Position numbers and translations under genes: made by a program. Of a DNA stretch of 64,000 nucleotides, positions 13,356 to 43,860 are shown piece after piece (the stretch's first letter is position 1; each line of letters starts with the position of its first letter). Below the pieces are notes generated by a model that saw nothing but the letters and a program-made list of their open reading frames with translations, had not been told where the DNA came from and searched no databases. The stretch is from a virus. The stretch is taken from positions 1 to 64,000 of IMG/VR virus record IMGVR_UViG_3300044591_000896; one strand, 5' to 3'.

Positions 13356-13459
13356 ATCTATATTCTATCATTTTGCAGAACATAGTGCGAAAAATAGTGC
13401 AAAAAAAGTGCTTCGGCGGCAGAAGAACCCTTTTATAAATTTAGGTGTATAATAATAAT

Positions 13460-14143: not shown

Positions 14144-14155
14144 CTACTTTCATAG

Positions 14156-14230
14156 TAGGAGTAGTCAGATTTGAACTGACAGTCGATTGTATATAAGACA
14201 ATTGCTTTCACCAGATTAAGCTATACTCCC
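14156..14230 (-). tRNA. tRNA-Ile(UAU)
   Basis: GGGAGTA/TACTCCT acceptor stem; ATTGT-CT-TAT-AT-ACAAT anticodon arm; GTTCAA T-loop. Confidence 0.88.
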
Positions 14231-14300
14231 GTAAATACCTGCAGCGCTAAGCCACATATATGTACGAGTATAGTTACAATTCCAACCCACAGTATTAACT

Positions 14301-14807
14301 TCATGGAGTAAACTCCAGAGAATCATCTCCATATGCAAATCCAGTAATATAGTATCTACATCCTGAAGTAACTACTTGAACCTTATGTGGGATATCTCCT
14401 CTATGAATTAGCATTGATCCCACCTTTGGTTTAAATGCTAGATCAATATCTGGATACTCAATCTTCCCGCCTTCATATTCATCATTGAGATAAATTACAA
14501 TGCCCCATTTGATTCCAACTTGATCTGGACGCTCTCCATATGCATCATCACGATGTAGATCCATTCCGCTATTGGTTTCCCATCTTTGAACTCTATAAAA
14601 CCCCGCCATTCTTTCTAAGTTTTTAAACATAGGATCAACTCTACTACGTAATTTACGAAACAATGGAGCAAAATCATTATGCTCAAAATATAGCTGCATC
14701 TCACCATCATTTTTAAGATTTCTTTTTGAAATTTCCATAAATGCTGCTATCTCACTATCTGAGATATAATTTTCAAACTCATAGATACCATCTGCAATTA
14801 AATTCAT
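14301..14807 (-). CDS. 2OG-Fe(II) oxygenase, prolyl 4-hydroxylase-like
   Basis: HRD...VIYLNDEYEGG...H.V..V.SG.RY. Confidence 0.85.
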   Translation of the reverse strand: MNLIADGIYEFENYISDSEIAAFMEISKRNLKNDGEMQLYFEHNDFAPLFRKLRSRVDPMFKNLERMAGFYRVQRWETNSGMDLHRDDAYGERPDQVGIKWGIVIYLNDEYEGGKIEYPDIDLAFKPKVGSMLIHRGDIPHKVQVVTSGCRYYITGFAYGDDSLEFTP

Positions 14808-15376
14808 TTTAAATCCCCAAATCCTAGAGAAGCACCAAACCTTGGAGTAATAGCTTCTACCTTATGTGGTCTACCATATGGACAGTAAAGAATATCACCT
14901 GGTTCTAGTATAACATCTACATCTATCAAATCATCTGAGACATTTTCTAGATCTGGATATTCCCCCGCTTTATAAATTGTCCATCTTGACTTACCTTCAA
15001 TATTCCAGAAGATCACATTCTCAGTATCCTGATGCAGCTTCCAGTATGTTCCATCTTGTGTAGTAATATTCATGTATAGATGTGTAGATCTACCCTCAAC
15101 CTCAAGTTGATAGTTTGATTCTGTGAAAATTTCTAATAATTTTTTTTGTGCATCTGCAATTCCTGGAATACGCATTGCATTTAGGATTCTGAATCCACCA
15201 TTCTCATATCGCTTTTGTCCATACAGATTTCCTGCTTTCACATCCTCATCTAAGATTCTGAATGCGTCGTCCCATTTGATCTTTGGTAACCCCGCCACAT
15301 TTTTTGCAACATGAACAGTAGCGTTGTTGAAAGCTGATCTAAACTCAGCGTCATCAAAGATATCAAAAGTTGTCAT
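14804..15376 (-). CDS. JmjC/cupin-4 family oxygenase, paralog of 13589-14143
   Basis: HQDTENVIFW...PGDILYCP.G.PH; leaderless start after TGCTATACT. Confidence 0.8.
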   Translation of the reverse strand: MTTFDIFDDAEFRSAFNNATVHVAKNVAGLPKIKWDDAFRILDEDVKAGNLYGQKRYENGGFRILNAMRIPGIADAQKKLLEIFTESNYQLEVEGRSTHLYMNITTQDGTYWKLHQDTENVIFWNIEGKSRWTIYKAGEYPDLENVSDDLIDVDVILEPGDILYCPYGRPHKVEAITPRFGASLGFGDLK

Positions 15377-15395
15377 GCCTCTAGTATAGCATTTG

Positions 15396-15411
15396 TGTTT
15401 CACGTGAAACA
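15396..15411. promoter_or_regulatory. parS: Perfect parS palindrome (ParB-binding site)
   Basis: TGTTTCACGTGAAACA. Confidence 0.85.
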
Positions 15412-15662
15412 AGTTCTAGTCAACTACTATTTCAGATTTGAGAAAATGTTAATATTTATTTTTCTTGTATGATACACACCTAAAAAAAGAACGATAAATC
15501 TTGATAGTCCGCCCATATTGTCCTCAATGTCCGATTTATACACTAAAAAAGTCGTGTGATGTGCCTCACAATGTCCGAATTGCACCTTTTTTGAGTTGAT
15601 ATTTGTCAGACCCCCGTGTTATGATTTATATATAAAGAAAAACAAACGAAAGGAGTCAAAAA

Positions 15663-16680
15663 ATGACTCAACTTACAGAAACACTATTCTCAACAATAGT
15701 TCACGACTACCATAACGGCGGAGTAAAATCCTCATATGGATTAGATAACTACACACGCAAGGAAATCCTTGCCTACCTTATCCGCTCTAAGGGTTGCGAG
15801 TGCATAAACTGTCTGTGATAGACATCACACGCAATAGCCTTGCAAATGTCATACTTATTTGATACCTTTATCTTATTGAACTACTAAAGAAAGAAGAAAC
15901 AAATGTCATACTCATTCGATACTAATACAGCCTCTAAGTGGGATACCATTCAAGAAGATGTTGCCGATATGTACCTAGAAGATGTCGAAGAAACAGAAGA
16001 AGAAGATTTCTTCGGTTTCTCTAAGTCTATCGAAACAGACCACTTAACAGATGAACAGATTGACACACTACTAACTACTATCGATTGGAACTAATCTAAT
16101 GACTATCACTTACTCAATTTGGCAAGGCTCTCGCTTACTATCTATCGACAATGTAGCGCATGAGGTTAAGGCTATTGACCACCTAATAGATTCGCTTAAC
16201 GATAGCGACCTAGGCAAGAAAACAAAATTCACCGCTAACATTCAAAACATAAAGGTAGGGGCTAACTAATGACTATTGAACTAGATAACTATGGTTTCAT
16301 GCTAGATACAGAATGGTGCTATGTTGCACTATCATGGCAACTACTAATCACCACCGCCCTACTAGTAACCGCTTACAAGATTTACAAGAGAAAGAAGAAT
16401 AAGTAATGAGAAAATGCAAGATAGATGTATGCGATTCCACCGAATTAGTTTATAGCGGTGTAGATGCTTTCCTATTGGGTGTTCCTACAGAAACCTATTG
16501 CTATGAATGTTCTAACAATGGAGATGCACATAGAGAATTGCTAGAGGTTTCTAACTAATGAATAGACTATTAACTACTATCGTTCAACTATCTATTGCTA
16601 TCCCCGCCCTATACATGATGAGGATCGTGTATCATGATTTCAAGGCGGAGATGCGTGAGATGTGGCAAGAATCACACTAG
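15663..16680 (+). other. Run of short early ORFs (15663-15818, 15903-16094, 16099-16269, 16269-16406, 16406-16558, 16558-16680)
   Basis: TAATG-coupled ORFs with AAGGAG/AAAGAAG RBSs; functions unknown. Confidence 0.65.
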
Positions 16681-16934
16681 CCTAACGGCGTGTCGGCTTG
16701 ACATTGTCAAGCTGGCCCGCAAAGGCGCGGGGTCGGGCGTGTCGTTATGAACATGTTATAAAATCCCCTGAAATTTACGGCGTGTCGATTTGACAGACAA
16801 AACGGACATATTGGTGTGATGCTTATCACATGCGTTGAGCGTCTTACTATATGGACTTACTGGCTAGTAATGTCATAAATGTCAGTCCCATCTGGTACAA
16901 TACTCTTATAACAACAACGAAAGAAGGTCAATTC

Positions 16935-18006
16935 ATGAACCTAGATGAATTCCGTGCCCATGTAGAGGCAACCCGTCAAGCAAGCAAGGCAGAAGCCTTG
17001 TCAGTGCTATCTGCTACAATGTCCGTATCAACAACAACGAAAGAAGGTCGCTAATGTCAGCGAATGTCTATAATGTCGAAAGCCTCTTAGTAGGTAAAAT
17101 GTATTACTCTAATTCAGTAAAGGGCGAGATTATCTCAGCCGAAAAAAATGATGATGTATGGTACTCAGGTGCAGATACATACAAGGTGCAAATTCGCCCT
17201 GTAAATTCTTTTGATTTCAAGGACACATACCGCTATGTAGCGGTGAAGGTTGGTGAATAAATGATAGATGTAATTGACTCAACCGAATTTTATTCGGTAC
17301 TAGATGAATCACACTTCTGCTGTGATGAAATGCAATTCCGTTATGTATGCAAGGCGCATGATGAATACATGGGTTGCTACTTTTGCGAATTTGATTACAA
17401 CAAAGAATGTGAGTGTGAATAATGGGATACATTGAGATTTTTAGAATGGATCAAAATGGTGCAGGTTGGGTAGATTTATCTGACGCTACCCCTGATGAAC
17501 TATTTACTATTGAGGTAGGGCTACTTAATGAGGGAGCCTTATTCCATACCCCCGAATCTGACTAATTTGTCAGACCCCTCTGCTACAATACTCTAACAAC
17601 CACGAAAGGGAAAACCTATGTACCAAATCTCTGTTTCATACGATAGCAAGCCTATCCATTTCAATAAAAACTATGTAGACGCTTTAGAGGCTTTTACCGA
17701 ATTCAACAAATTTGTTGATTGGGGTTGGGCTAATGAATACTCAACTGTAAATCTACAAATGCCAACTGGCAAAATGTATACACGCACATTTTATCGTGAA
17801 GGACGAAAGGTCGTAACAAAATGATGACACGCAAAGACTATGTAGCAACCGCAGAAATTCTAAAGTATGCAAGCGATAAAGCGCACCCCGCTTTATTTTC
17901 TAAAATGGTAAATGATTTTGCGGAAATGTTTGCAAAAGATAATCCGCGTTTTGATGTTGTGAGATTTCACGAAGCAAGCAATTACAAAGTAAAGGTAGGC
18001 AAATAA
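16935..18006 (+). other. Run of short early ORFs (16935-17054, 17054-17260, 17261-17422, 17422-17565, 17618-17824, 17821-18006)
   Basis: Translationally coupled ORFs with GAAGG/GAAAGG RBSs. Confidence 0.65.
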
Positions 18007-18360
18007 ATGCAAATCGTTGAAATGTTTGTGTGTTCAGATTGTGAAGATTTCGGTGCAGTTTATATTGAAGGGAATGTGTTAAGTGTTAAAAGATGTGAAT
18101 GTATTGCAGAAGATTAAACGAATTCAAGAATTGCGAAGATCAAATGCAGCAACCGCAATTCCTTCAAAGAAAAAATATTCACGAAAGCGCAAGCATAAAA
18201 ATTCAGAGTATTGAATATTTATGCGGCCCGCAATCTTTTGTGGGGGGCAAGTGTGAATTACGACACATTTTAAAAATCGCCTGAATTTTGCGGCGTGTCG
18301 ATTATGATATGTCAGTGGCCCATGGTATTATTCTCTTAAATCTAACGAAAGGTCCAACTC

Positions 18361-18570
18361 ATGGAACTATTTACTGTTGCTTGCTTGAACTATGAAATTT
18401 GTGGCGATATGGCTACCTTTGATTCTGATTCAGAATATGAAATCTATGGCGATGATTATATCTGCGCTGAATGCTATGCGTCTGAGGAAATGGAATTCTT
18501 TGAAACTATAGGCTGGGCAGATTCAGACGCATTAGCGTCTGCAGGCCATGGAATGGATGAGGATTACTAA
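18361..18570 (+). CDS. Small acidic Cys-containing protein
   Basis: GAAAGG RBS downstream of promoter at 18310. Confidence 0.55.
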   Translation: MELFTVACLNYEICGDMATFDSDSEYEIYGDDYICAECYASEEMEFFETIGWADSDALASAGHGMDEDY

Positions 18571-18601
18571 TATGTCAGATCTAACCGCTATAATTACCCC
18601 T

Positions 18602-19321
18602 ATGAAACTTAAACGGTCCAACGATAGAAAGGTGGCTAACCTTGTCACAAAAAATGGAAAGCAAGCAGCAATTGCTAACACATTCGGATTACCTGCAGGA
18701 AAAGACTATTCATGTCCTGGCGCTACGTCTATCTGCGAAAGTGTTTGCTACGCTGGCAAATTGGAAAAGCTCTTCCCTGGTGTAAAAACTAATCTTCTCC
18801 ACAATTGGGAGCTCTTACGCAATGCAGACATGGACACAATGCTCATTCTATTAGATGAGATGATTGTTGAATTTATTGCTGATTGTGAAAAGAAAGACGC
18901 TCCTAAATTATTCCGTATCCACTGGGACGGTGATTTTTTCAATGATACATATACATATGCGTGGAAAGTAATTATTACTAATCATCCTGATATTCAATTT
19001 TGGGTTTATACTCGTGTAAAGTCTGCAGCGCTTATTCTTAAGGATGTTGCTAACCTATCTCTTTATTATTCCACCGACGATGATAATAAAGAAATTGGTC
19101 ATGAGTTAAAAGTAAATGAAGGTATTCGCCTTGCATATCTTGGGAAGACTTTTGCCGTAACTGAGGGCACCATGAAAGAATTGACTGGCAAGCCTGGCGC
19201 TAAATGTCCTGAGAATATGAAAAGCATTCCACTTATTAGCAATGCAGGCTCTGCATGCGTGTCATGCGGTCTCTGCGTATATGGTAAAGCGGATGTTAGA
19301 TTTTCTGCGAGTAAAAAATGA
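18602..19321 (+). CDS. Phage Gp88-like (radical-SAM-related) protein
   Basis: CPGATSICESVCYA, FRIHWDGDFF, FWVYTR, C-terminal CxxCxxC; leaderless start after promoter 18573. Confidence 0.75.
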   Translation: MKLKRSNDRKVANLVTKNGKQAAIANTFGLPAGKDYSCPGATSICESVCYAGKLEKLFPGVKTNLLHNWELLRNADMDTMLILLDEMIVEFIADCEKKDAPKLFRIHWDGDFFNDTYTYAWKVIITNHPDIQFWVYTRVKSAALILKDVANLSLYYSTDDDNKEIGHELKVNEGIRLAYLGKTFAVTEGTMKELTGKPGAKCPENMKSIPLISNAGSACVSCGLCVYGKADVRFSASKK

Positions 19322-19602
19322 CGGATATACTAGGGGCAATTATTGGAGTCGGGATCTTAATCGGATTACTGGTCCCGCTTCCAATAATTATTTATACAAT
19401 ATTTAAACAATAGCGGCGTGTCAGCTTGACAAGATCAAGCTGGCCCGCAATGTTGCGGGGTTATCCACAGGGTTACGGGAGTTATCCACAATCCCTTGAA
19501 ATTGTGATTAATCTCACAAAAGCTGCGACACGCCGTAAATGGATTAGGTAATGTCAGTGGCATAGTGTAAAATACTCTTATCAACCAAACGAAAGGCAAC
19601 AA

Positions 19603-19827
19603 ATGTCAAATGTAATCCGTGTTCCACACACAGTAGTATTCGAGGCTATTATTAACCTTGATACTATTCCTGCAAACCTACTACCTGCGCTAATTGCGCT
19701 TGATGAAGCAACAATGACTCAAATGTGCAAAGAAGCAACACTACACGCACTTGCTATGTCTAATGTATTACCACTTGCAAATGAAAATAATACTTGGGCT
19801 GAAGTAACTATCAAGGGAGATAACTAA
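19603..19827 (+). CDS. Hypothetical protein
   Basis: GAAAGG RBS after promoter 19552. Confidence 0.6.
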   Translation: MSNVIRVPHTVVFEAIINLDTIPANLLPALIALDEATMTQMCKEATLHALAMSNVLPLANENNTWAEVTIKGDN

Positions 19828-19829
19828 TA

Positions 19830-20096
19830 ATGGGATACACAACAGCATTAGCATTAGAAGAAGAATTGTCTTTAGAGGCAGGACTTGCTTATCACTTGCA
19901 GGGTAATCATTACCCACCCGTTCCCGTCTCAATGGTGCAACCTTGCATAGACGCTATTGATGCGTTCTATGATGAGGATTTTGATCGTGAGATTAATTTA
20001 CCTGAAGGTATCTCTTGGCGAGGTAAAACTTCAGCACCCGCATCTGCCATAATTGATGCTCACCACTTAGACCCGTGGCTACCTGAGTGTGATTAA
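19830..20096 (+). CDS. Hypothetical phage protein
   Basis: HLQGNHYPPVP motif; GGGAG RBS. Confidence 0.6.
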   Translation: MGYTTALALEEELSLEAGLAYHLQGNHYPPVPVSMVQPCIDAIDAFYDEDFDREINLPEGISWRGKTSAPASAIIDAHHLDPWLPECD

Positions 20097-20191
20097 CCTC
20101 ACACAATAATTTTCTCAAATACTGAGATAGGGCTAGACAAATGTCAGACCCCAATGTTATACTACCTACCTAACAAAGAAAAGAGGCAAAA

Positions 20192-20368
20192 ATGACAATC
20201 AACGACAAGTTGTATCAGGTTGGCGATTTATTCACCACCCTAAAGTCAAAGAAAACAGGTGTGATTAAGGAAATCCACCCACAGGCATCTGGCTCGGTGC
20301 GTGTGTTGCTAGAAATGCCAAACAAGGAAACTCGCTGGACTTCGGTATCAGCAAGCACTTTGGCATAA
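20192..20368 (+). CDS. Small SH3/KOW-like hypothetical protein
   Basis: AGAGG RBS; YQVGDL...TGVIKEI; not in ORF track. Confidence 0.55.
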   Translation: MTINDKLYQVGDLFTTLKSKKTGVIKEIHPQASGSVRVLLEMPNKETRWTSVSASTLA

Positions 20369-20509
20369 AACTAAATAATCGAAACAGGGGCAGTTTAAGA
20401 GAGTGTTCTCGCCCAATGTCGTAAGTAAGAACTCTCTCCCTTCGGGGAAATGTCAGACCCCCCTGCTATACTATCCACTAACAACAACCCACCAACGAAA
20501 GGTAACACA

Positions 20510-20926
20510 ATGTCAAGAGCAATCACAGTAAAGGTGGCAACACCTAAAGTAATCAAGGCTTTGGAAACAAAGTTAGCAACAATCAAGAAGGACTATGCAG
20601 AGCAAGGTGCAAACGAGGCTAAGTATGAAAAGGCTCGTAAGGCTTGGCAGAAAGAACTTCAGGATTATGCAATCGCAAACATCAAGAAGTCAGAGAACCT
20701 TCGCACAAACTATCGTTCTTGGAATAACACACTCAACATTGACTTTGATTTGACAGTATCCGAAAAGGATTTGCCAAAAGAGCCTGAGCGTGATTTTACA
20801 GTTATGCACCAACACTCATACAATGAAATTGTAGAGGACATTACAAATGCTCTCACAATTCTAAAGATGACAGATGAGGAAACAGTAAATGCTTCTACAA
20901 TGAAGCAAATTGCTCGTTATCTCTAA
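20510..20926 (+). CDS. Hypothetical coiled-coil protein
   Basis: GAAAGG RBS; start reassigned downstream of promoter 20451. Confidence 0.65.
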   Translation: MSRAITVKVATPKVIKALETKLATIKKDYAEQGANEAKYEKARKAWQKELQDYAIANIKKSENLRTNYRSWNNTLNIDFDLTVSEKDLPKEPERDFTVMHQHSYNEIVEDITNALTILKMTDEETVNASTMKQIARYL

Positions 20927-20963
20927 ATAATTTGGGGGGCAGAACTAAAGTCCTGAACCCAAA

Positions 20964-20990
20964 CGACCTGAGTAAGTCGCCAAACTGCTC
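20964..20990 (+). ncRNA. Mini H-type pseudoknot motif, copy 1
   Basis: CGAC-CTGAGTAA-GTCG-CC-AAAC-TGCTC. Confidence 0.5.
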
Positions 20991-21025
20991 TCCCTTATGG
21001 GACAACTACTAACAAAGGTAATACA

Positions 21026-21286
21026 ATGGCAAATCGTTTTAGAGTTGAAATCTATGACGCAAACAAAATGAATGACATCACAATCTATTCAGATCAAGGT
21101 GTTGATAAAGAATACTTAACTGAATTAGTATTCAGCAACATCAGAAACTTTAGCGGAAGAGTTAATGCTTATGTTTTTGATAATGTAAAAAAGAAAAAGA
21201 CAACTGCATTATTTTTTGATGAGAAGACAGTTGAAAAAGTTAATTCAATTACACGTGGCTTAAAGAAAATGGAGTTGGGGTTATAA
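21026..21286 (+). CDS. Hypothetical protein
   Basis: AAAGG RBS. Confidence 0.6.
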   Translation: MANRFRVEIYDANKMNDITIYSDQGVDKEYLTELVFSNIRNFSGRVNAYVFDNVKKKKTTALFFDEKTVEKVNSITRGLKKMELGL

Positions 21287-21467
21287 ACCCCAGCTTCGCC
21301 CGCAATATTGCGGGGTTATCCACAGGTTTACGACTGCTTGTGGAAAACGCCTGAATTTTTGTGAGATTACTCACATGGATCAAATCGGACAAATGACTAA
21401 CTAATCTAGACAATGTCAGTGCCACCTGTTATAATTGCTTAATCAACCAATCGAAAGGAATAAATCC

Positions 21468-22472
21468 ATGGCTCATAATCTAGAAATGGAAAATGGCGAA
21501 GTTGCATTTGCACTTCGTGGCGCACCTGCTTGGCATAATCTTGCCAATCGTATTTTCTCACAAGATGAGGAAGTAACTACACAATCTATGCTTGAAGAAG
21601 CAAAGTTATCAAATTGGAATGTTCGTCTATCTCCAATCACTGAGCACATTCCAGAATCTTGGAATGATGTATCTACTGCATCTCTTGTCATTCGTGATAA
21701 TCCATTCAATGGCGGAACTGATGTTCTTGCTACTGTTGGTAAGCGTTACAAGCCTGTGCAGAATGAAGAATTGTTTGCATTTGCTGATGCAATTCACGAT
21801 GCCAATGCTGATTGCCGTTGGGAATCTGCTGGCTCACTAAAGAAGGGCAAAGTTGTATTCGGTACTGTGGATATTCCTCGTACAATGGTTCTTGACCCAC
21901 AAGGTGCTAACGATGAAACTAAACTCTATCTAATTGTTTGGACATCACACGATGGTTCTGTTGCGGTGCAGGCTGCCGTTACTCCTGTTCGTGTTGTATG
22001 CCAAAACACTCTCAACCTTGCAATGAAAAGCGCAAAGCAATCTTTCAAGATTCGCCACACGCAATCTGTTGAAGGTCGCATTCAAGTTGCTCGTGAAACT
22101 CTTGGGCTTGCTCTTGGATACTTTGATGAATTCGAAAAAGAGGCTCAATCTCTTTACACTCAGGCAATTACTGATGCTGAATTCTCTAAGTTGATTCAGA
22201 CAATCTATCCAAAGCCTGAAAAGGATTCTAAGGGTGCGCTAAAGAAGTGGGAAAATAAGGTTGTTCTACTTGATGACCTTTATCATAACTCACCAACTAA
22301 CGCTACAATCAAGGGAACAAAGTGGGGCGCATTCAATGCACTTACTGAGCGACTTGATTACTATCGTTCAGGTCGTGGTAATTCTGAATCACTAATGGCT
22401 GGTGCATCAGGATTTGACCCTGTACTAACCGCAGAGAAAAATAAAATTCTCAAGTTAGTAAAATCATTTTAA
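21468..22472 (+). CDS. DUF932 family phage/plasmid protein
   Basis: AWH.L, PVQNEE.F.F, SHDGS, TPVRVVCQNTL, GT.WG..NA.TE..D. Confidence 0.85.
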   Translation: MAHNLEMENGEVAFALRGAPAWHNLANRIFSQDEEVTTQSMLEEAKLSNWNVRLSPITEHIPESWNDVSTASLVIRDNPFNGGTDVLATVGKRYKPVQNEELFAFADAIHDANADCRWESAGSLKKGKVVFGTVDIPRTMVLDPQGANDETKLYLIVWTSHDGSVAVQAAVTPVRVVCQNTLNLAMKSAKQSFKIRHTQSVEGRIQVARETLGLALGYFDEFEKEAQSLYTQAITDAEFSKLIQTIYPKPEKDSKGALKKWENKVVLLDDLYHNSPTNATIKGTKWGAFNALTERLDYYRSGRGNSESLMAGASGFDPVLTAEKNKILKLVKSF

Positions 22473-22480
22473 CTAAATGA

Positions 22481-22512
22481 TTAACGGGGGAGAGAAATCT
22501 CCCCCGTTTTAT
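22481..22512 (+). terminator. Intrinsic terminator
   Basis: AACGGGGGAGA-GAAA-TCTCCCCCGTTTT. Confidence 0.75.
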
Positions 22513-22514
22513 TT

Positions 22515-22588
22515 GGTTCGTTAGCTTAGTTGGATAAAGCGCTACCCTGTCACGGTAGAGATCACGGGTTCAAGTCCCGTACGAATCG
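22515..22588 (+). tRNA. tRNA-Asp(GUC)
   Basis: GGTTCGT/ACGAATC acceptor; CTACC-CT-GTC-AC-GGTAG; GGTTCAAGTCC. Confidence 0.92.
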
Positions 22589-22746
22589 CAATAAATATTT
22601 ATGCACATTCATGCATAATTATTCGCCCGCAATGTTAAGGGAAAATTTGTTGTGTTACGGATCACATAAAAAAAGCCCTGAAAACTATAGACAAATGTCA
22701 GTGGGGTCCTGTACAATACTCCTATATAACAACGAGAGAGGTAAAT

Positions 22747-23172
22747 ATGTCAAATAGAACTAAAGGATATACTGGAACAATTGTTGACGGCAAGAAGCTT
22801 GCTGAAATTGCAAACGGTATTTATAATCTACAGTATAGCTCAGACTTTTCTGAGTGCACAGTAGATAATCTATTGTTCATTGAACTAGAAGAGAAGAATG
22901 TTTTTGGTGATCCAAAATATGCTCTTGTATGCTCAGAAGGTGTTGGTTGGGAACAAGATACATATGGTTGCTTGGAAGTCCCTACTAATATTGGACAAAT
23001 GGGCCTATGGAATGGACGTGTATTTATCTCAGTAGATACTGTTAAGTCTTGCCTTACTGATAAGACTGAGGATATATCAGATTACATTAGAGTCTTTGGC
23101 TCCCGCCTTGATTCTAACTGTTCCCTATGGCAATCCAAAATGTCAGTGGCCTCTGGTACACTAGCGATATGA
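22747..23172 (+). CDS. Hypothetical protein
   Basis: GAGAGG RBS after promoter 22696. Confidence 0.6.
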   Translation: MSNRTKGYTGTIVDGKKLAEIANGIYNLQYSSDFSECTVDNLLFIELEEKNVFGDPKYALVCSEGVGWEQDTYGCLEVPTNIGQMGLWNGRVFISVDTVKSCLTDKTEDISDYIRVFGSRLDSNCSLWQSKMSVASGTLAI

Positions 23173-23831
23173 CCAACGAACTCATATCAAGTAAGTATAC
23201 ATTTGTCTGTGACCCAGATGAATGCGACTCATTAATTGAATTAACATCCTCAGACGGATTTGGATTCCCGTCTGGTGTGATGGAACTCACATGTCCATGT
23301 GGCCGTAAGACTACCTTATTGTCAGTGGAGCATGCTACAATTGCACCTTCAAACCAAACGAAAGAGGAAACCATGGAAACAACAATTGGCTCAGATGCAT
23401 TCCACTCACCTGCAGTAGAATACAATCCTGATTTACTAGTTACATATAAAGTAATCAAGGGTTACTCTGACCCTGAATTCACAACATCAAAGGTTACCAG
23501 TCTTGAGTGGGACCTACACAATGGACGACAATCACAAAAGCGTGTTGGTCTTCTTGAATCTAACATTAACACAGTTAAAGATATTATTACTGAAGTTTAT
23601 TCAGACTCAGATGACCAAGATACACTTCGTTCAATCGCTGAAGCGCTTGGCATTGAATTAACTCGAACAGTTGAATTCACTGCAACCATTGAGGTTAGTG
23701 GAACAATTGACCTTAACTTACTTGAAGACTATGACTTCGAAACAGAAATCACAGATAATCTTTATGTTGATTCACAGAGTGGCAACATTGAGATTGGCGA
23801 TACTGAAATCTGTTATGTGAGGGAAGCATAA
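23169..23831 (+). CDS. Hypothetical protein with N-terminal Zn-ribbon and probable internal start at 23373
   Basis: Leaderless start after promoter 23141; internal promoter 23320 plus AGAGGA RBS. Confidence 0.55.
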   Translation: MTNELISSKYTFVCDPDECDSLIELTSSDGFGFPSGVMELTCPCGRKTTLLSVEHATIAPSNQTKEETMETTIGSDAFHSPAVEYNPDLLVTYKVIKGYSDPEFTTSKVTSLEWDLHNGRQSQKRVGLLESNINTVKDIITEVYSDSDDQDTLRSIAEALGIELTRTVEFTATIEVSGTIDLNLLEDYDFETEITDNLYVDSQSGNIEIGDTEICYVREA

Positions 23832-24780
23832 TGTATTTTGAACTTACTGCTCCATCTCAGGTAGCCTTTGCACGGGCTACCTGGGAAGCGGAGTTGATTG
23901 GGTTGGACCCAATGACAATTGCACCATTGACTTTCAATATCGGAACTGGTAGTATTGAGAAGGTAAGTCGTATTCGTGATAAGTATAATCTAATAGAATC
24001 ATACACATCAGACTACGAGCCAACAGGATACACAGGGAGATAATATGTCAGACTACAGAGATGGCTTTGATGACGGTTACAAATTTGGTCGTGAAGAACT
24101 AATTGAAAAACTAAGAGAGATTGATATCTCAGATATCGATTCTTGGTTAGTTGATAAGTTAGCAGACATGATCGAAGGTAACGAGATATGAGTTGGATTG
24201 CATGCGATAAGTGTGGAGATTCAGCCCAAGCTAAATGGATAATTAAATTAGTTGAAGGCGAACTATACTTCTGTGGTCACCATAAAAATAAATATGAGGC
24301 GGGCCTTGCCAAGGTCTCATATGAAATGATAGAATTAGACAAGGTCGAAGAAGTACTACTACTAGAAGAGGCGGAAATATAATGGGAGATAGAGCAAACT
24401 TCGGATTTAGACAGAGCAATGGCGATGTTATTGTTTTGTACGGTCACTGGGCTGGACATGAGATGCTAGCACAATTAGCAAGCGCTGTTGATGCGGCACG
24501 TCCTCGCTGGACCGATGAGGGATATGCAACACGTATTGCTATTTCTCAACTCGTGGGCCAAGACTGGGAGTCGACAACTGGTTGGGGAATTTATATTAAT
24601 ACAATTCCTGACAATGAGCACAAGATTCCTGTAATCGATTGGCGCAGTGGGACCTTTAGTCTTCATGAGGAAGCATCCTATGATGAAAGCACAAAGGTCC
24701 ATGGCATGTCAGATGAACCAATGTTTTCACAAACACTGGATGCATTTGTAAATAAATATTCCTTGGTGCTTTCTAAGTAA
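23831..24780 (+). other. Coupled early ORFs (23831-24043, 24045-24191, 24188-24382, 24382-24780)
   Basis: Overlapping start/stop codons; 24188 ORF has CxxC...FCGHH zinc motif. Confidence 0.65.
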
Positions 24781-25078
24781 CACGGAACCATATGGTGCCT
24801 CTATCAGTCATTAAATGGCCAGGGGTTAAATAAAGCAGAGTTCTTTTACTTTCGTTGGTGATACTCTAGCAGCCTATATAATAGCTTGACAAATCATGAT
24901 CTGGCCCGCAAAAACATAAGGGTAACATATTTTGTTTACGAGGTCAATTTAAAATCGCCTGAAATTCTGTGATCTTGACCACATGCATACAAAATGTGGT
25001 GTGGAACACACCCAAATAGTATTCCATTTGTCAGTGGTCCAGTGTATAATTCTCATATATCAAACGAAAGGATATAAT

Positions 25079-25852
25079 ATGCCAAACTGGGTATATAACA
25101 CATTGACTATTCAAGGACCTAAATCTGAGGTAGATATGATTAAAGATAGATTGAATGCTCCATTTACATTAGCACAGGAGACATTTGGTATGGGTGATAT
25201 TTCTTCTATGGGTTTCCCCACCAAAATTAAATTAGTTGAATATAATAATCCTGTCTTTGCTTTCTATAATATCCACTCATATAAGGATGACGGCATTACT
25301 GATGAGGAATATGCCTGCCAGCCTACACGTTCAGGTGCAGATATCAAAGACCCTAATTGGTTTGCACAAGAAGTAGCACATGCCAAGACTCAAAAAGATT
25401 GGTACTCATGGAACAATACTAACTGGGGCACCAAATGGGATGTAGCCGTATCAGATGATGACAAATATCCAAACACAGAATTACTTGAATATAAATCAGA
25501 GGGTGATGACAACTGGGTTGTCTATAAGTATGAAACTGCTTGGTCACCTGCTGTAACCATTCTAACTAAACTAAGTAATCTTGTTCCTAACTGCCTACTT
25601 ACTTTGGAGTATGAAGAGGAGACAGGTTGGGGTGGAGAATATGAGATTGTCCGTGGTGATGTTAAAACTATTCTAGAATATGAGAATCGTTGCTATGCTT
25701 GCCAATCTTTTGATACATTATCTTATTGTGAAGATGACTGCGGTGAATTCTGCTCTGAATGTAACCAAGGTTCTTGGCAAGATGAAGAGGCTATGAAAGA
25801 ATGTCAGACCCACATGGTACTATTAGAAACTACAGAAAAGGTGAAAGCATAA
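25079..25852 (+). CDS. DUF1281/YubB ferredoxin-like domain protein
   Basis: MPNW..N.L.I.G, WY.W...NWGTKWD, ETAWSP. Confidence 0.8.
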   Translation: MPNWVYNTLTIQGPKSEVDMIKDRLNAPFTLAQETFGMGDISSMGFPTKIKLVEYNNPVFAFYNIHSYKDDGITDEEYACQPTRSGADIKDPNWFAQEVAHAKTQKDWYSWNNTNWGTKWDVAVSDDDKYPNTELLEYKSEGDDNWVVYKYETAWSPAVTILTKLSNLVPNCLLTLEYEEETGWGGEYEIVRGDVKTILEYENRCYACQSFDTLSYCEDDCGEFCSECNQGSWQDEEAMKECQTHMVLLETTEKVKA

Positions 25853-27098
25853 TGGAAGCATTTACAGATACAGTTGGAGAACATATCCTTGGAGCAATTC
25901 AAGTAGATATTGAGCAACATCTATTTGAGCAATGGAATAGCAAAAACTTAGATGAAGGTAGCGATTATGCTGAATATATGTTCATGCAATTTGCTCCTGA
26001 TAGCCTAAAGCAATCATACAATGAGTATTATGGCTATATTGAGGGAGATGAGTTTCTACTATGATGTTAGGATACACATTAAACGATTTAGATGAAATGA
26101 GGGCTGTTGTTACTAAGGCTCTATATGATTCTAAGGGACTGCCGACTGAAAAAGGATTAGAAAAAACAGCAGACTTTTTAGACGGGCTTTGGTCGGAGGG
26201 CTACTTTGACTAGATCATCACACTTCCTAGAATATATAAAGCTTCATTTAATTAGTCTTATCCAGGACTTAGATAACTTACATTCAACTGATGATAACTT
26301 TAAATTTGTTGAAGGACAAATTGAGGCAACCAGGCATTTATTGTCAGTGGCTACTGATATAATGAACTCTTCTAACGAAAGGTATAACAATGAATAATGA
26401 AGACATTGGGCTCCCGCCCCATTTACAGCGCATGGTCAACGCAGGTGTATCAGGCCTTGACATCATGCATGGAGAACTAAAAAACCTAATGCTTATTGCC
26501 GAGCAAGAACTTGCAGAGGCCCAAGCAATTGAGGATGAGTCAGAAGAAGCAATGGACTCTATGGACCGCACACGTTGTGAAGGTGCCCTTGATACATTAG
26601 TGTCTTTATATGATTTAACATATCAACTATCATTTGCGATTGGAGCACGTAATGAAGCCTGAAGATAAAGACAAACTAAATGAATGTTTAAAGATTCTAG
26701 ATAGCACTGACCTTGGTCTGTCCCTGGTTTGGCTATGGACCTGGTCCACAATCAACAACATCTTTGAGGATGAAAGTTACAAGCAGAAGGTTACTATCGA
26801 TCAAATGTGGGACAACCTCTGTGAGGCTGTGGAGGCTGGAATGGGCTTCTCACTGGAGTACGGGGCGGAACAGCACCAAGAAGATGTCCTTGAATGGATG
26901 TTAAATCGTGAATACATTGTAGACACAATGTTTGAAGAAGAGGAAGAAGACGAAGATGAAGATGACTGATGAATACATCAATGATCAATTAAATACAGCA
27001 CAAAAGCTTTTGTGGGGTGGGTCAGAAACAGAAAACATTGAGGCCCATAACATCATTGCTAGATTAATTAAAGATAGAGTTGAACAGACCAATTTAGT
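25852..27098 (+). other. Coupled acidic early ORFs (25852-26064, 26206-26397, 26390-26662, 26652-26969 and short neighbours)
   Basis: Tightly packed plus-strand ORFs; functions unknown. Confidence 0.6.
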
Positions 27099-27194
27099 AT
27101 AAGGGCAAGAAAAAAGGCTTACGGTGACTATTTACAAATCCGTGAAAAGTTGCTATAATTAATACAAATCAATTATCTCGAAAGGATAAATCAA

Positions 27195-27344
27195 ATGACA
27201 ACAAAGCGTGAATATCTAAAGCAGCAGGGCATTACAGTTGGAGCACGAGGACGTTTCTCAGGAGCAGCCAAGGTAGCTTTGCAAGAGGCAGTACAGAAGG
27301 GCATTACCTTCACTGCAGAAAAGCCTGTATCAAAGGCTAAGTAA
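27195..27344 (+). CDS. Lsr2-like DNA-binding mini-protein (49 aa)
   Basis: GAAAGGA RBS; KREYLKQQGITVGARGRFS resembles the Lsr2 C-terminal RGR AT-hook domain; not in ORF track. Confidence 0.65.
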   Translation: MTTKREYLKQQGITVGARGRFSGAAKVALQEAVQKGITFTAEKPVSKAK

Positions 27345-27436
27345 CTAACTGTGGGGCTGGCAATAGCGGTGGGATCCGTGGGCATTGCCAGCCTCGCTTC
27401 ATTTTGGTATAATGTAAGATTGACGAGAGGCGGACT

Positions 27437-27853
27437 ATGAGCAAGACACCAACAGACAAAGTAATGGAATCATTAGTTAATCTAATTGAGCAAGCATACT
27501 TCAATCCTGCACAGGTAGGTCGTTATCTATCTGAGCAACCATACTACACAACTGACCGCACAATGGAAATGATTACTGAAATCATTACACATATTGCAAG
27601 ACGGGCACAGCAAGAACAAGTTGCTGGTAAAACATCAGACGGTCTCTATCTAGCAACTGAGTTAGCCTATGCCTTAGAAGCAATTAAAGAAACATATCAA
27701 TTCAAGACTCTCAAACTACCTAGAACTCTATCTGAGATATCGGCGGGGCTACCAAAAGTAGAACTAAAAGATATAAATAGGAACTACAGATATTCCTGGT
27801 TAGATAATAACAATGAACCAGAATCAGTTAGAATTGAACACCCGTTCTTCTAG
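27437..27853 (+). CDS. Hypothetical protein
   Basis: TTGCCA-N17-TATAAT promoter and GAGAGG RBS. Confidence 0.6.
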   Translation: MSKTPTDKVMESLVNLIEQAYFNPAQVGRYLSEQPYYTTDRTMEMITEIITHIARRAQQEQVAGKTSDGLYLATELAYALEAIKETYQFKTLKLPRTLSEISAGLPKVELKDINRNYRYSWLDNNNEPESVRIEHPFF

Positions 27854-27872
27854 CCAATGTTCCACAAATTAG

Positions 27873-27902
27873 ATCCACATCCACAGGGTGTGGATTTTTT
27901 TT
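27873..27902 (+). terminator. Intrinsic terminator ending the plus-strand block
   Basis: ATCCACAT...GTGTGGAT followed by T run. Confidence 0.65.
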
Positions 27903-28341
27903 GTGATCAAAATGTGTGGGCTTGTGGGCAAAAATTCCCTTTTACGACGAGCTAAAAAATACGCCTGAAATTGTATATAAATGTCGACAAATCTATATAG
28001 AATCATATAACTATTTAAACAAATGTGTGCAGAATTAGCCAAAATCTGTCAAAATTTTTCCATGAAATCTATTGACAATGTGGGCAAAATATGCCTTTTA
28101 CGAGGGCATTGACAAAATCCCTGAAATTTGCATGCATATACAAATGTCGACAAAATGATTGACATTACGGCATCTATATGATAGGGCATGTCCCATTACA
28201 TGTATATCTAAATACATATATATCTGTAGTAATTGTCGACTTATCTATAACCATATTACTCCACAATACTCCACTTTACTCCACATATAAAGCCTCTAGG
28301 AGGCTGATAGAGAGGAGATAATTGGGAGGGGGATATAGGAG

Positions 28342-29054: not shown

Positions 29055-29402
29055 TATTCTATTATAGCATTTATGTCAGGTACTGACAATACCCTCTCTA
29101 CCGCCGCCGATTTCACTAATTGGGGTCAAATTTTCATGATATTGTATATGATAGTCTCTTAATTGATAAGTTACTGCACAATAGCATATAGGACAATTTG
29201 TGATCCATTGGGACTTATCTTCCCAATGCTTAGGCAACTATGAACTCAATCCCTTAAATGAATGGCATGCACATACGCCTACCACCTTGTATGTTCTATC
29301 TACTTCAGCTAGGTCATTATATGTTGCTACAGCCTGACAGTAGTGGCATTTCTCTTTTGGTTCCGCCTCTAAATAGGCTTCAAGGTTATCCAGGATACCC
29401 AT

Positions 29403-42153: not shown

Positions 42154-43345
42154 TTAAACTAATAATTCAGATGCAGTAATATCATTTCCGCAGTATCTTT
42201 TTTTGATAACAAAATCTCTTACAGACTCTGATCCATACTGTCTTCCAGACAAAATGATTACCCATCTTGGCTCAAATTTTGATGTTATGCATGTCTCGCA
42301 CATTAGAAGATTGATTGGCAATAATGTGGACTTTCTAAGATTAAGTTGATTCTTTGTCTTATTACAGCTATAGCATAAAACTTTTTCCATTATTCATTTA
42401 CCTCTTCGCATTGTGTAGATTTAAAAAATCTAGAAACATCAAATCTGATGTTATCTCTTGAAAATAATCCTGCAAAATCTTTGATCAGTATAGCATATAT
42501 CTCTGGGTCTAGGTGTGGCCTTACTGATAAAAGTATCTCTTCTGCCTTTATGTAGTCTGCCTTTACAAATACACATTCGCCAGCCTTTGGTCTCTTTAAA
42601 ACCTTAGTGGTTATTTTTCCACCTGGCTCATGTAGGCTAACTGTCAAATAGTCTTTTGCAAATCCCCAGTCCTGATATCTATTGTACGCTTCTGCTGCAT
42701 CTATGGCATTATTTAAATGATAGATTGATCTTACTGGGCTTTCTCCATCACGAGCAATTGTAAGCATGTAAGAGGCATGATTGTTCTTTTGGCTTTCTAT
42801 AAAAGACGAAACAACATCTTCATGCTCTGGCTTTAATTCATTCATCTTCTTCCTCGATGTGCATAAGCACAATTTCATTCATGATAACAAAATCTTCGTT
42901 ATCTATAACTTCAACATGTTCTATTCCATCTTTTACATAAGATGCTTCTGATGCATATATTCCAATATTGCCAACTGTTCCGTAGCATTTTTCACTGTAT
43001 ATATATACAATGTTAATTATTTCAGGACTTTCTTTCACCTGGCACTCCCTCTAATTCGCATCTAACACCATAGGACTCTATGATATTTTTAACCATCTCA
43101 ACATATTCTATTACTCTTAATTTCATTGAACCGTCGTACTGACTAAAATTATCTTCGTATAACCTTATTGCTAAAAACTCTGGATACTTTACTATATCCA
43201 TTATTAAATTAGAGGCAGGCTTTTTTAATTCCCGCAATTTTGATGCCATCTCTTTTGAATAGAATACTGGCTTGTTTGGCTCACCAGTCCATTGGTTTAT
43301 GCCATACTTAAAGTGATCTTTACCATTGTTCTTATCAATAAACAT
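42154..43345 (-). other. Coupled hypothetical ORFs (42154-42390, 42390-42845, 42838-43038, 43022-43345)
   Basis: Overlapping ORFs downstream of whiB. Confidence 0.6.
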
Positions 43346-43646
43346 GTTTAGCCTTCAATCTTTTCCACACTTCTTTTGTTTTATGTGAGTTTCTGACCTT
43401 GTCAATAGAACCAGAATTTAAATAAACTCCACCCCATACTCCATAGTCATTATTATTAATTCCGTTTTCATAACATATAGCTATAACTGGGCAAGAAAGA
43501 CATGCCTCATCAATTGTCCTAGCTATATTTATATCTGACTCATACTTATCAAAAAATAGATTTGTGTCCATACCTAGGCATAAAGCAAGCTTATACCAAT
43601 TTGGATCTTCTTCTTCTATACCTAGATTACTTAAAATACTTGACAT
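43335..43646 (-). CDS. whiB: WhiB-family transcription factor
   Basis: Four Cys (ALC...CLSCPV..IC) and GVWGG. Confidence 0.9.
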   Translation of the reverse strand: MSSILSNLGIEEEDPNWYKLALCLGMDTNLFFDKYESDINIARTIDEACLSCPVIAICYENGINNNDYGVWGGVYLNSGSIDKVRNSHKTKEVWKRLKAKHVY

Positions 43647-43860
43647 ATTTTTTAGGCAGCTTCCAGATACCTTTACCGTTGACAGAAATTTTTTCTGCCT
43701 TACCCCATTGATTATCATGGAACATGCCACTTGTATCTGAGTAGCCGTTGTAATCTTTTTTCCAGATAACTAAATCATAATTATCCCAAAAAGATTTTTG
43801 AACTTTTGTTTGAGATCTGTTTATAAATATCTCAACGCCTTGCATTGTTAAATGAAGCAC
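43627..43860 (-). CDS. Hypothetical phage protein
   Basis: GTG start downstream of tRNA-Asn. Confidence 0.55.
   Translation of the reverse strand: MLHLTMQGVEIFINRSQTKVQKSFWDNYDLVIWKKDYNGYSDTSGMFHDNQWGKAEKISVNGKGIWKLPKKYVKYFK

Follow-up and report, generated by a model that had tools for sequence, protein, structure and literature searches.

In the genome of a lake phage, some 35 small genes, most of them orphans, form a block with 16 sites that are real promoters of one special class, in which a sigma-A -10 element is combined with a TGTC(A/G)G box lying 10 nt upstream and replacing the -35 element. On balance we think it probable, judging from the DNA, that these promoters are read by the host activator PafBC, by which the phage would plug into the DNA-damage switch of its host.

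RESULTS

A plus-strand gene block at the start of the phage genome

The source genome is a 115,479-bp IMG/VR record (38% GC) of an uncultured freshwater phage infecting actinobacteria, and the stretch of DNA analyzed here, referred to as the window, comprises its first 64 kb (64,000 nucleotides). Most genes of the phage belong to no known family. The region from 15.6 to 27.9 kb is the sole long plus-strand block in the 115-kb genome, and the promoter motif is confined there. Families recognizable among its genes are GP88 (PF17338), DUF932, DUF1281_C/Api92-like, and DUF7455; the genes probably form an early set. RNA-library contigs span the block, a type of evidence that can neither show transcript starts nor exclude DNA. 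The block and its landmarks are as follows.

15396..15411, no strand: perfect parS-type palindrome TGTTTCACGTGAAACA, read directly, at the point of strand divergence
15604..27897, plus strand: block of ~35 small, mostly orphan genes (ORF and strand map, whole-genome motif positions)
22483..22508, plus strand: strong terminator-like hairpin downstream of the DUF932 gene and immediately ahead of tRNA-Asp
22515-22589: tRNA-Asp
27131..27159, plus strand: ordinary sigma-70-type promoter, TTTACA-17-TATAAT
27385-27413, plus strand: second ordinary sigma-70-type promoter, TTGCCA-17-TATAAT
27871..27897, plus strand: strong terminator-like hairpin closing the plus-strand block

The last two genes of the block are served by the sigma-70-type promoters at 27131 and 27385 and lack the TGTCAG box, while the phage genome outside the block uses ordinary TTGACA/TATAAT (-35/-10) promoters. 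As ordinary sigma-A promoters are present elsewhere, the block need not be transcribed first, an observation that speaks against the PafBC reading.

Sixteen promoters of one class

A sequence-only reading of the window had listed 14 plus-strand TGTCAG-N10-TANNNT sites. In an exact search all 14 proved to be exact and on the plus strand, within a total of 18 plus-strand and 0 minus-strand matches (expected, 1.0 ± 0.9), a number reached by 0 of 100 shuffles. The list was nevertheless incomplete, the genuine-looking sites at 16999 and 25802 having been missed. The whole 115-kb genome contained the same 18 matches and none further, and a spacing of 10 was alone enriched, with 18 cases versus 0 to 3 at every other spacing from 4 to 19. 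Two matches, 17055 and 29074, look like chance, leaving 16 that are probably genuine promoters; the TGTCAT and TGTCGA variants reported earlier are both present.

15604..15625, plus: promoter 1, TGTCAG-N10-TATGAT with TGn; ATG 15663
16880..16901, plus: promoter 2, TGTCAG-N10-TACAAT with TGn; ATG 16935
16999..17020, plus: promoter 3, absent from the first list, TGTCAGTG...TACAAT, conserved leader; ATG 17054
17568..17589, plus: promoter 4; ATG 17618
18310..18331, plus: promoter 5; ATG 18361; GGCGTGTCG box 14 nt upstream
18573..18594, plus: promoter 6; leaderless ATG 18602 of the GP88-family gene, 7 nt past TATAAT
19552..19573, plus: promoter 7; ATG 19603
20142..20163, plus: promoter 8; ATG 20192
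20451..20472, plus: promoter 9; ATG 20510
21414..21435, plus: promoter 10, DUF932 gene; ATG 21468
22696..22717, plus: promoter 11; ATG 22747
23141..23162, plus: promoter 12; leaderless ATG 23169, 6 nt past TACACT
23320..23341, plus: promoter 13, within the frame opened at 23169; in-frame ATG 23373
25029..25050, plus: promoter 14; ATG 25079, DUF1281_C/Api92-like protein
25802..25823, plus: promoter 15, absent from the first list; ATG 25852
26342..26363, plus: promoter 16; ATG 26390
15847..15868, plus: weak variant TGTCAT-N10-TACCTT, GTC kept; ATG 15903
27982..28003, plus: doubtful variant TGTCGA-N10-TAGAAT, past the terminator of the block
17055..17076, plus: probable chance match, TGTCAG inside ATG-TCA-G of the gene starting at 17054 (served by 16999)
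29074..29095, plus: probable chance match in a minus-strand gene region, no start codon after it

An RBS plus ATG or a leaderless ATG had been described behind each of the 14 sites, and this holds for all 16. In 14 of them an A-rich leader ends in a ACGAAAGG-type Shine-Dalgarno sequence with an ATG 26 to 37 nt after the -10, and the other two are leaderless, with the ATG 6 to 7 nt past the -10 (18602 and 23169); the positions of these two ATGs lend indirect support to transcription starting 6 to 8 nt past the -10, as expected of PafBC-class promoters. The Pfam match of the GP88-family protein starts at the residue encoded by the leaderless ATG at 18602. Promoter 13 may give rise to a shorter product from its in-frame ATG. 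Eight of the 14 sites continue as TGTCAGTG, just as had been noted; among the 16 real sites nine do so.

There is no -35 element: across 804 distinct instances, the information content upstream of the box stays below 0.3 bit, except for an A/T preference (0.26 to 0.57 bit) at three adjoining bases, and TAGACA-like hexamers are present by chance at a few sites. The -10 is near consensus in this phage (TAyAAT), usually preceded by TGn. A near-consensus -10 with TGn can work without an upstream element, which is a point against the PafBC reading in its own right. The box was also recovered from an anchor that does not depend on it (TGnTAnnnT plus Shine-Dalgarno plus start codon), TGTCAG standing at the expected offset in 338 of the 549 distinct sites, TGTCGG in 17, and every other hexamer in at most 14. 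The known PafBC box shows the same A/G alternative.

The box matches the published PafBC motif and the recA promoters of candidate hosts

The published PafBC motif, tGTCgg(N10)tA(N3)T, is a -26 element whose GTC triplet is read by PafB residues R46 and R50 at promoters devoid of a -35 (PMC8635444). The proposed likeness of the phage sites to this class stands, since sequence, exact spacing, and missing -35 all agree (PMC8635444). The earlier reading knew of no description of a PafBC-driven phage regulon; none was found in a literature search either, nor any paper describing the phage motif.

The following feature bears on the host.

43335..43730, minus strand: WhiB-like gene with C-x2-C-x5-C and GVWGG motifs (PF02467, 41.9 bits, above cut-off)

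Among 14 control genomes, the PF02467 model (E ≤ 0.001) hits Corynebacterium only. Phage records with GP88 homologues at ~50% identity number 283 for Mycobacterium and 101 for Streptomyces, with a few others at far lower identity. The DnaE-like polymerase shares 57% identity with its Streptomyces phage counterparts, and the polymerase-UvsX order is the same in those phages. The WhiB-like gene and the actinophage-type genes together indicate that the host is an actinobacterium. Mycobacterium and Corynebacterium, the hosts first suggested, are unlikely for a freshwater phage of 38% GC. The candidate hosts are streamlined actinobacterial genomes of 1.2 to 2.2 Mb with pafB-pafC, which we infer from genome size and GC to belong to a Nanopelagicales-like order; the tandem WYL pair is present in those of 1.2 to 1.5 Mb. 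Candidate-host PafB aligns to M. smegmatis PafB (PDB 7P5X) with an E value of 4e-39, both R46 and R50 being kept. The earlier proposal to check candidate hosts for pafBC and for the motif before recA gave a positive answer on both counts, recA being preceded by TTGTCAGTGGCGCCTGCTACCTT and then an SOS box in 25 of 30 genomes of the Nanopelagicales-like order. Roughly 10 to 15 box sites are present per candidate-host genome, others of which lie, often with leaderless starts, before genes for an OGG-like glycosylase, DNA methylases, LysM, and DUF6504 proteins.

It is unlikely, in our estimation, that the TGTCAG box is recognized by an activator that the phage encodes or delivers with the virion and that redirects the host RNA polymerase, the likeness of the box to the PafBC box being mimicry or coincidence. 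A -10 with an upstream box replacing the -35 is the architecture of T4 middle promoters, with which PMC8635444 also compares it, and such a factor could be expressed first from ordinary sigma-A promoters elsewhere in the genome and, if novel, could hide among the genes without a known family. However, no WYL, Sigma70_r2, or PafB/C-like gene was found in the phage genome: the absence of a WYL gene from the window, noted previously, extends to the rest of the genome, a phmmer comparison of host PafB and PafC with its six frames gave no match at E ≤ 10, and no WYL was found in 15 related phage records. The box also equals the host recA promoter base for base, including the spacing and the A/G at position 5, and nothing would have driven an independent factor toward the same sequence. 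That an earlier-made or virion-borne phage protein could read the box is nonetheless a consideration against the PafBC reading.

The box is conserved in relatives

In 80 close relatives the motif gave 1,096 forward versus 2 reverse matches. Five complete related genomes have 14 to 24 sites on the strand of the block, nearly all of these in one stretch of ~10 to 13 kb, and 0 to 4 on the other. Among 58 distinct orthologous copies of the DUF932-gene promoter (21414), ATGTCAG is invariant and the next 3 to 4 bases vary. The motif was not found in the two cultured relatives tested, Streptomyces phages BillNye and Paradiddles, which weighs against the PafBC reading. Divergent lineages, with TerL 56 to 57% identical and ≤3% of nucleotides alignable, keep TGTCRG-N10-TAnnnT in 8 to 19 copies per block, with either A or G at box position 5, just as the published PafBC motif allows. 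In these lineages the TGn extension is rare (0 of 19 sites in L274, 1 of 12 in L280, and 2 of 14 in L211) and TGTGA-N6-TCACA palindromes are absent. With many divergent promoters lacking both TGn and palindromes, the box itself emerges as the constant, needed part.

These data bear on a second possibility, namely that the promoters fire constitutively with sigma-A through an extended -10 and that the box is the operator of a shut-off repressor or serves as a high-affinity decoy, soaking up PafBC and blunting the host damage and defense response. In its favor, the TGnTAyAAT of this lineage approaches consensus, 16 strong sites, multiplied as the genome replicates, would be far more numerous than the host sites, and the latter precede methylases and other possible defense genes. 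Yet the divergent lineages keep box and spacing mostly without TGn, so that the box must contribute to initiation there, and a nonpalindromic box kept at a base-exact distance from the -10 fits a polymerase contact better than an operator; a decoy role, for its part, could coexist with activation. We give this explanation little chance of being correct.

CRP-type palindromes upstream of the boxes

The block also contains TGTGA-N6-TCACA palindromes (CRP/GlxR consensus), which, like the ordinary promoters outside the block, did not figure in the sequence-only reading.

15555..15570, no strand: first of seven perfect palindromes, which start at 15555, 15814, 16815, 19503, 20088, 21360, and 23276
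Starts at 16661, 18252, 22651, and 24968: four one-mismatch palindromes

The 11 palindromes, all within the block, compare with 3.06 expected (0 of 100 shuffles reach 11), and 10 of them, the exception being the one-mismatch copy at 16661, sit 33 to 65 nt upstream of a TGTCAG (or TGTCAT) box. In relatives, a perfect palindrome lies upstream in 325 of 841 distinct promoters and downstream in 1, although these promoters are not independent samples; palindrome-box distances peak at 34, 44, 54, and 64 and, to a lesser degree, at 49. In this lineage the box is thus not the sole conserved upstream signal, a further point against the PafBC reading. A second regulator is probably involved at the palindrome-bearing promoters, and the single Crp of the host, which matches M. 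tuberculosis CRP over its whole length (E value of 6e-77) with the stretch GASRETVNKALADFA identical, suggests itself as the obvious candidate.

That a CRP-family protein, probably this host Crp, would be the main activator in this lineage and the TGTCAG box secondary is, we believe, very improbable. The palindromes are confined to the block, the distances in relatives lie about one helical turn apart, and the host protein resembles its M. tuberculosis counterpart, all of which would suit such a role. Against it, a perfect palindrome is found at only ~40% of promoters, the divergent lineages have the same box and no palindromes, the distances are phased rather than fixed with the peak at 49 out of phase, candidate host genomes contain hardly any perfect palindromes (0 to 1 per genome), and the binder could be a phage protein. 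Finally, the idea that the repeats arose by duplication of a single cassette and have no regulatory meaning, or that they reflect an accident of composition, is barely credible and was judged already refuted by the conservation pattern: leaders (ACGAAAGG) and boxes are alike, as expected of copies, but spacer and flanks vary between sites with box, spacing, and -10 fixed, the strand bias is 1,096 to 2, and the same architecture recurs in lineages without alignable DNA.

DISCUSSION

Under the PafBC reading, for which we infer the binding, trigger, and timing, the TGTC(A/G)G box would be bound by the host PafBC heterodimer, a WYL-domain activator that binds single-stranded DNA, which would insert itself between region 4 of sigma-A and the DNA ("sigma adaptation"). 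Unmodified host RNA polymerase would then transcribe the ~35-gene block whenever PafBC is active. The activating single-stranded DNA could come from phage DNA entry or processing, nuclease attack, or DNA damage. The block genes would probably represent an early host-takeover or counter-defense set, with the CRP-type palindrome 33 to 65 nt upstream of many boxes acting as a second input. The requirement of PafBC for single-stranded DNA means that early infection must supply some, which counts as a point against this reading.

More tentatively, and with rather less confidence than in the PafBC reading itself, the sequences raise the prospect of an abundant lake-phage group that dispenses with an early transcription factor and directly reads the single-stranded-DNA alarm of its host. 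Activated PafBC would steer the host polymerase to 16 or more phage promoters, which would express a hypervariable counter-defense and takeover set and compete for the activator with a small host PafBC regulon (recA, glycosylase, methylases). The block, with its PafBC boxes, the host-type CRP sites of this lineage, and the host-type parS at its edge, would in this way integrate several host state signals.

The phage promoters share with the PafBC-dependent (RecA-NDp, recA P1-type) promoters of Mycobacterium and other Actinobacteria the tGTC(g/a)G box, the exact 10-nt gap to TAnnnT, the missing -35, frequent leaderless starts, and a GTG/GG-rich continuation past the box. Unlike these host promoters, they are viral, number 16 in 11 kb on one strand, and precede small orphan rather than repair genes; their -10 is AT-rich and near consensus, to which this lineage adds TGn and the upstream CRP-type palindrome. 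No LexA box accompanies them.

Several WYL regulators, DriD, BrxR, CapW, and SiwR, adjust gene expression in response to DNA damage or phage attack, the shared signal being single-stranded DNA sensed by the WYL domain (PMC11804915, PMC9186387, PMC11662680). They control host repair or defense genes, whereas the regulator in this case would act on genes of the invader itself.

T4 middle promoters (MotA box at -30 plus a sigma-70 -10; MotA/AsiA "sigma appropriation") likewise combine a host -10 with a box that takes the place of the -35 and is read by an adaptor between sigma region 4 and the DNA, the same architecture that we propose for the phage block. However, T4 brings its own adaptor and anti-sigma factor, while no phage factor of the WYL, Sigma70_r2, or PafB/C type was found here and the box matches the site of a host activator.

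The SPO1 terminal-repeat module and the T5 first-step-transfer region are host-takeover or pre-early modules of large lytic phages. Like the block described here, they are compact one-strand sets of many tiny orphan genes, set apart from the remaining genome, in which all or nearly all genes have a strong promoter to themselves; in Streptomyces BE-cluster phages the GP88 homologue similarly lies in a long terminal repeat (two places per record). The SPO1 and T5 modules, in contrast, rely on plain housekeeping-sigma promoters, where the phage block would use a conditional, activator-dependent class.

A plus-strand block of TGTCAG promoters

The phage record (115,479 bp, 38% GC, rated complete in IMG/VR; the window is its first 64 kb) carries nearly all its genes on the minus strand, including those for a DnaE-like polymerase, a UvsX-like recombinase, the large terminase, ribonucleotide reductase and tail proteins, together with six tRNAs. 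The sole long exception is a plus-strand block, shown here with its surroundings.

12789-15412, minus strand: run of JmjC/cupin and 2OG-Fe(II) oxygenase genes, directly upstream of the block
15396-15411: parS-type perfect palindrome TGTTTCACGTGAAACA, between the minus-strand JmjC-like genes and the block
~15.6-27.9 kb, plus strand: the block, ~35 small genes, mostly orphans
22483-22508, plus strand: strong terminator-like hairpin before tRNA-Asp
27871-27897, plus strand: strong terminator-like hairpin closing the block

The recognizable families in the block are GP88 (PF17338), DUF932, a DUF1281_C/Api92-like protein and DUF7455. No DNA near-identical to the block was found among 50,697 phage records, and no tyrosine integrase was found. 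As to the parS-type palindrome, neither parA nor parB was noticed among the scanned proteins.

An exact search of the window for TGTCAG-N10-TANNNT returned 18 matches on the plus strand and none on the minus strand (~1 expected). The rest of the 115-kb genome added no copy, and across the whole genome 10 nt was the only enriched spacing between the box and the -10 hexamer. All 14 sites listed by the sequence-only reading were recovered at their exact positions and on the plus strand, each followed by a start codon as it had claimed; two sites that it overlooked, 16999 and 25802, appear genuine. The other two matches look like chance, i.e., 29074 and 17055, in the latter of which TGTCAG falls within the ATG-TCA-G codons of the gene that 16999 serves.

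A start codon lies downstream of all 16 real sites. In 14 of them it is reached through an A-rich leader ending in a ACGAAAGG-type ribosome site, and in the other two the ATG is leaderless, at 23169 (6 nt past the -10) and 18602 (7 nt past the -10), the GP88 Pfam match starting exactly at the 18602 methionine. One open frame (23141-23831) has two promoters, the first serving the leaderless ATG at 23169 and the second, 23320, lying inside the frame and leading to an in-frame ATG at 23373, so that the frame may yield proteins of two lengths.

Ordinary TTGACA-16/18-TATAAT promoters, including one with a 12/12 match, lie in the gaps before the minus-strand genes, and others, at 27131 and 27385, likewise serve the last two genes of the block. 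TGTCAG promoters thus form a distinct, deliberate regulatory set rather than simply reflecting what promoters of this host look like. No LexA (SOS) box was found in the window. In four freshwater metatranscriptome runs, assembled contigs covered 26 to 29 of 30 block bins, several spanning promoters, with DNA carry-over possible.

Shape of the element

The consensus of 804 distinct instances, selected by the pattern from the phage genome and 80 IMG/VR relatives, was WWA-TGTCAG-(T/A)SSc-n-n-(a/c)TGn-TAyAAT. No information was present further upstream, hence there is no -35 element. Because this set had been chosen with the pattern itself, the analysis was repeated blind to the box, using TGnTAnnnT followed by a ribosome site and a start codon as the anchor (549 distinct sites). 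At the right offset, TGTCAG was found in 338 of the 549 and TGTCGG in 17, every other hexamer occurring 14 times at most. In orthologues of the DUF932-gene promoter, ATGTCAG was unchanged in 58 distinct copies while the bases right after it drifted among TGC, TGG, ACC, TCC and CCT. Two apparent promoter subtypes, TGTCAGTGG and TGTCAGACC, were rejected as classes, since orthologous promoters switch among these same triplets.

Correspondence with PafBC promoters

ChIP-seq in M. smegmatis defined the PafBC motif as tGTCgg(N10)tA(N3)T; by cryo-EM, PafB touches positions -23 to -28 (the "-26 element"), its residues R46 and R50 reading the GTC triplet, with PafBC placed between SigA region 4 and the DNA of a promoter that has no -35 (PMC8635444). 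PafBC is turned on by single-stranded DNA (PMC11804915). The likeness of the block promoters to this mycobacterial type, proposed by the sequence-only reading, was borne out in sequence, spacing, A/G freedom and the missing -35.

SigA host RNA polymerase would be unable to use the block promoters through a -35, PafBC activated by single-stranded DNA would give the missing upstream contact at the box, and up to 16 promoters would fire together to express the block. The promoter architecture, its conservation and the host match are established; that host PafBC probably binds the promoters and switches on the block is inferred, as are the trigger, the timing and the host.

A candidate host and its PafBC

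Several features point to an actinobacterial host. The phage encodes a WhiB-like protein that scores over the Pfam cut-off and has the cysteine and GVWGG motifs; among 14 control genomes, only Corynebacterium matched the WhiB model at E≤0.001, and WhiB serves as an actinophage marker (PMC10202952). GP88 homologues with ~50% identity were found in records of Mycobacterium phages (283) and Streptomyces phages (101), the others being only a few cyanophage and unclassified records of much lower identity where listed. The phage polymerase is 57% identical to those of Streptomyces phages, with the same gene order. A search for the host via the phage ribonucleotide reductase failed, all 13 matches in species genomes being phage contigs mis-binned into unrelated MAGs (Saccharibacteria, Bacteroidia, Brevundimonas and a cyanobacterium). 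In the species genome collection, binning contamination has placed contigs of the phage group (loci L093-L105) in MAGs with the labels Saccharibacteria, Bacteroidia, Brevundimonas, cyanobacterium, Maricaulis and others.

The motif was well above the reversed control in most of 151 genomes of the candidate host class, a tally that takes in seven unpublished genomes (G007, G015, G024, G030, G032, G036 and G043) on which no claim depends. Streamlined genomes of 1.2 to 1.5 Mb carry a tandem WYL gene pair, the first gene of which aligns to M. smegmatis PafB (7P5X; E 4e-39) with both arginines kept. The order around them (41 sampled genomes of 1.2 to 2.2 Mb, 44 to 52% GC at recA) fits Nanopelagicales. 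The check that the sequence-only reading had asked for, i.e., pafBC and the same motif before recA in candidate hosts, gave the tandem WYL pair just described and, in 25 of 30 genomes of the order, a recA preceded by TTGTCAGTGGCGCCTGCTACCTT and then the SOS box TCGAACAGATGTTCGG; three of the remaining five have GTC at the same place. Further host sites precede genes, often leaderless, for an OGG-like glycosylase, C5 and N6 DNA methylases, a LysM protein, DUF6504 and DUF3263.

In one candidate host, 11 of 15 PafBC-type sites lie within 50 kb (G140:C1:439654-489204, L120-L138), preceding genes for a C5 DNA methylase, an OGG-like glycosylase, two TPR proteins, a trypsin-like peptidase and orphans. 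The cluster is possibly an island of defence or repair genes induced by damage.

Phage-encoded factors

Alternatively, the box could be read by an adaptor made by the phage or carried in its virion, as in T4. With ordinary promoters elsewhere, other units may be transcribed before the block, which leaves room for a phage-made activator. The absence of a WYL gene claimed for the window holds and extends to the whole genome, where no sigma-70 region 2 was found either. Host PafB and PafC gave no phmmer match (E≤10) to the six frames of the phage, no WYL domain turned up in 15 related records, of which five are complete, and 40 proteins of the window, encoded in and around the block, showed no DNA-binding regulator in Pfam and PHROG scans. 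We regard such an adaptor as unlikely.

Conservation across phage lineages

All 80 relatives carry 6 to 17 copies on the gene strand, totalling 1096 forward versus 2 reverse. Five complete relatives have 14 to 24 copies on the block strand, nearly all within one ~10- to 13-kb stretch, and 0 to 4 on the opposite strand. A pattern scan of IMG/VR recovered divergent blocks with 8 to 19 copies on one strand and ≤3% of nucleotides alignable to the phage genome; the terminases of two of these contigs are 56 to 57% identical to that of the phage, and four of ten encode WhiB. Constant across lineages are TGTC(A/G)G, the 10-nt gap and TAnnnT; position 5 of the box is A or G, with G in the majority in three lineages.

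The TGn in the consensus could indicate constitutive extended -10 promoters in which the box serves as an operator or as a decoy for PafBC. This explanation, to which we give little credence, is weakened by the divergent lineages, where TGn is mostly missing (0/19, 1/12 and 2/14). In the nearest cultured relatives, the Streptomyces phages BillNye and Paradiddles, the pattern occurs 0 and 3 times, as often as chance would give, so that Stanwilliamsviridae-like phages do not share the motif as a family.

In contigs of lake RNA libraries, a promoter's -10 is found fused to the leader of another gene (e.g., 17594 to 20516), which suggests cassette reshuffling among relatives by recombination at shared promoters. 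In one related genome (G192, the record of locus L013; positions 501-2446 and 109243-111188), a ~3.3-kb terminal repeat lies within the promoter block, with four promoters at both ends, 108,742 bases apart; either genome ends located in the block or a circular assembly that wraps around would account for this.

Upstream palindromes

The block also contains seven perfect and four one-mismatch copies of the CRP/GlxR consensus TGTGA-N6-TCACA, all between 15555 and 24983 (11 found versus 3.06 expected; none of 100 shuffles reached 11). All but the one-mismatch copy at 16661 sit 33 to 65 nt upstream of a TGTCAG (or TGTCAT) box. In the relatives, a perfect palindrome lies upstream of 325 of 841 distinct promoters and downstream of one. 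The distances peak at 34, 44, 54 and 64 and, to a lesser extent, at 49, a pattern only suggestive of helical phasing as the promoters of relatives are not independent. Each candidate host has one Crp that matches M. tuberculosis CRP over its whole length (E 6e-77), the stretch GASRETVNKALADFA being identical, and no Crp was found in the phage. That the promoter set is mainly CRP-driven nevertheless appears improbable: perfect palindromes are absent from the divergent phage lineages with the same box and nearly absent from candidate host genomes. The palindrome is an add-on specific to this lineage. Meaningless duplication of the promoters is scarcely credible, given a box kept across lineages that hardly align.

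A further sequence, GGCGTGTC, has five plus-strand copies in the block. At 16688 and 19416 (regions 16688-16790 and 19416-19470) it heads a ~45-nt element with two hairpins, AGCTTGACA..TGTCAAGCT and then GGCCCGCAA..TTGCGGGG. Across lineages, ~8% of promoters have a GCGTGTC box 12 to 16 nt upstream of TGTCRG, and in some host genomes GGCGTGTC occupies the -26 place of recA.

Significance and comparison with known systems

The sequence-only reading knew of no PafBC-driven phage regulon, and full-text searches on PafBC, RecA-NDp, and sigma adaptation with phage likewise retrieved none; the nearest item is a 2025 ACS Infect Dis paper, cited in PMC12848934 and reportedly on pafBC and mycobacteriophage resistance. 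Nanopelagicales-like bacteria rank among the most abundant freshwater microbes, and to our knowledge almost nothing is known of phage regulation in them. Control by PafBC would offer a simple and testable way into how their phages regulate genes, and because the box is conserved across Actinobacteria, M. smegmatis reporters are usable straight away. The promoter signature would also be a practical marker, locating early blocks and predicting an actinobacterial host in orphan-rich metagenomic phage contigs.

With its tiny orphans, DUF932, Api92-like protein and GP88 homologue, the block resembles a set of genes for takeover or counter-defence; in Streptomyces BE-cluster phages, the long terminal repeat contains the GP88 homologue. 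In Actinobacteria the response to DNA damage has PafBC as its master switch, and WYL regulators are generally viewed as sensors arming repair or defence; we know of PafBC solely as a host-protective system. A virus with its first genes under PafBC would turn the host alarm into the invader's ignition key and, if true, be the first case of a phage exploiting "sigma adaptation." After the box, PafBC-type host promoters continue with TGG, TGC, TCC or ACC, as do those of the phage.
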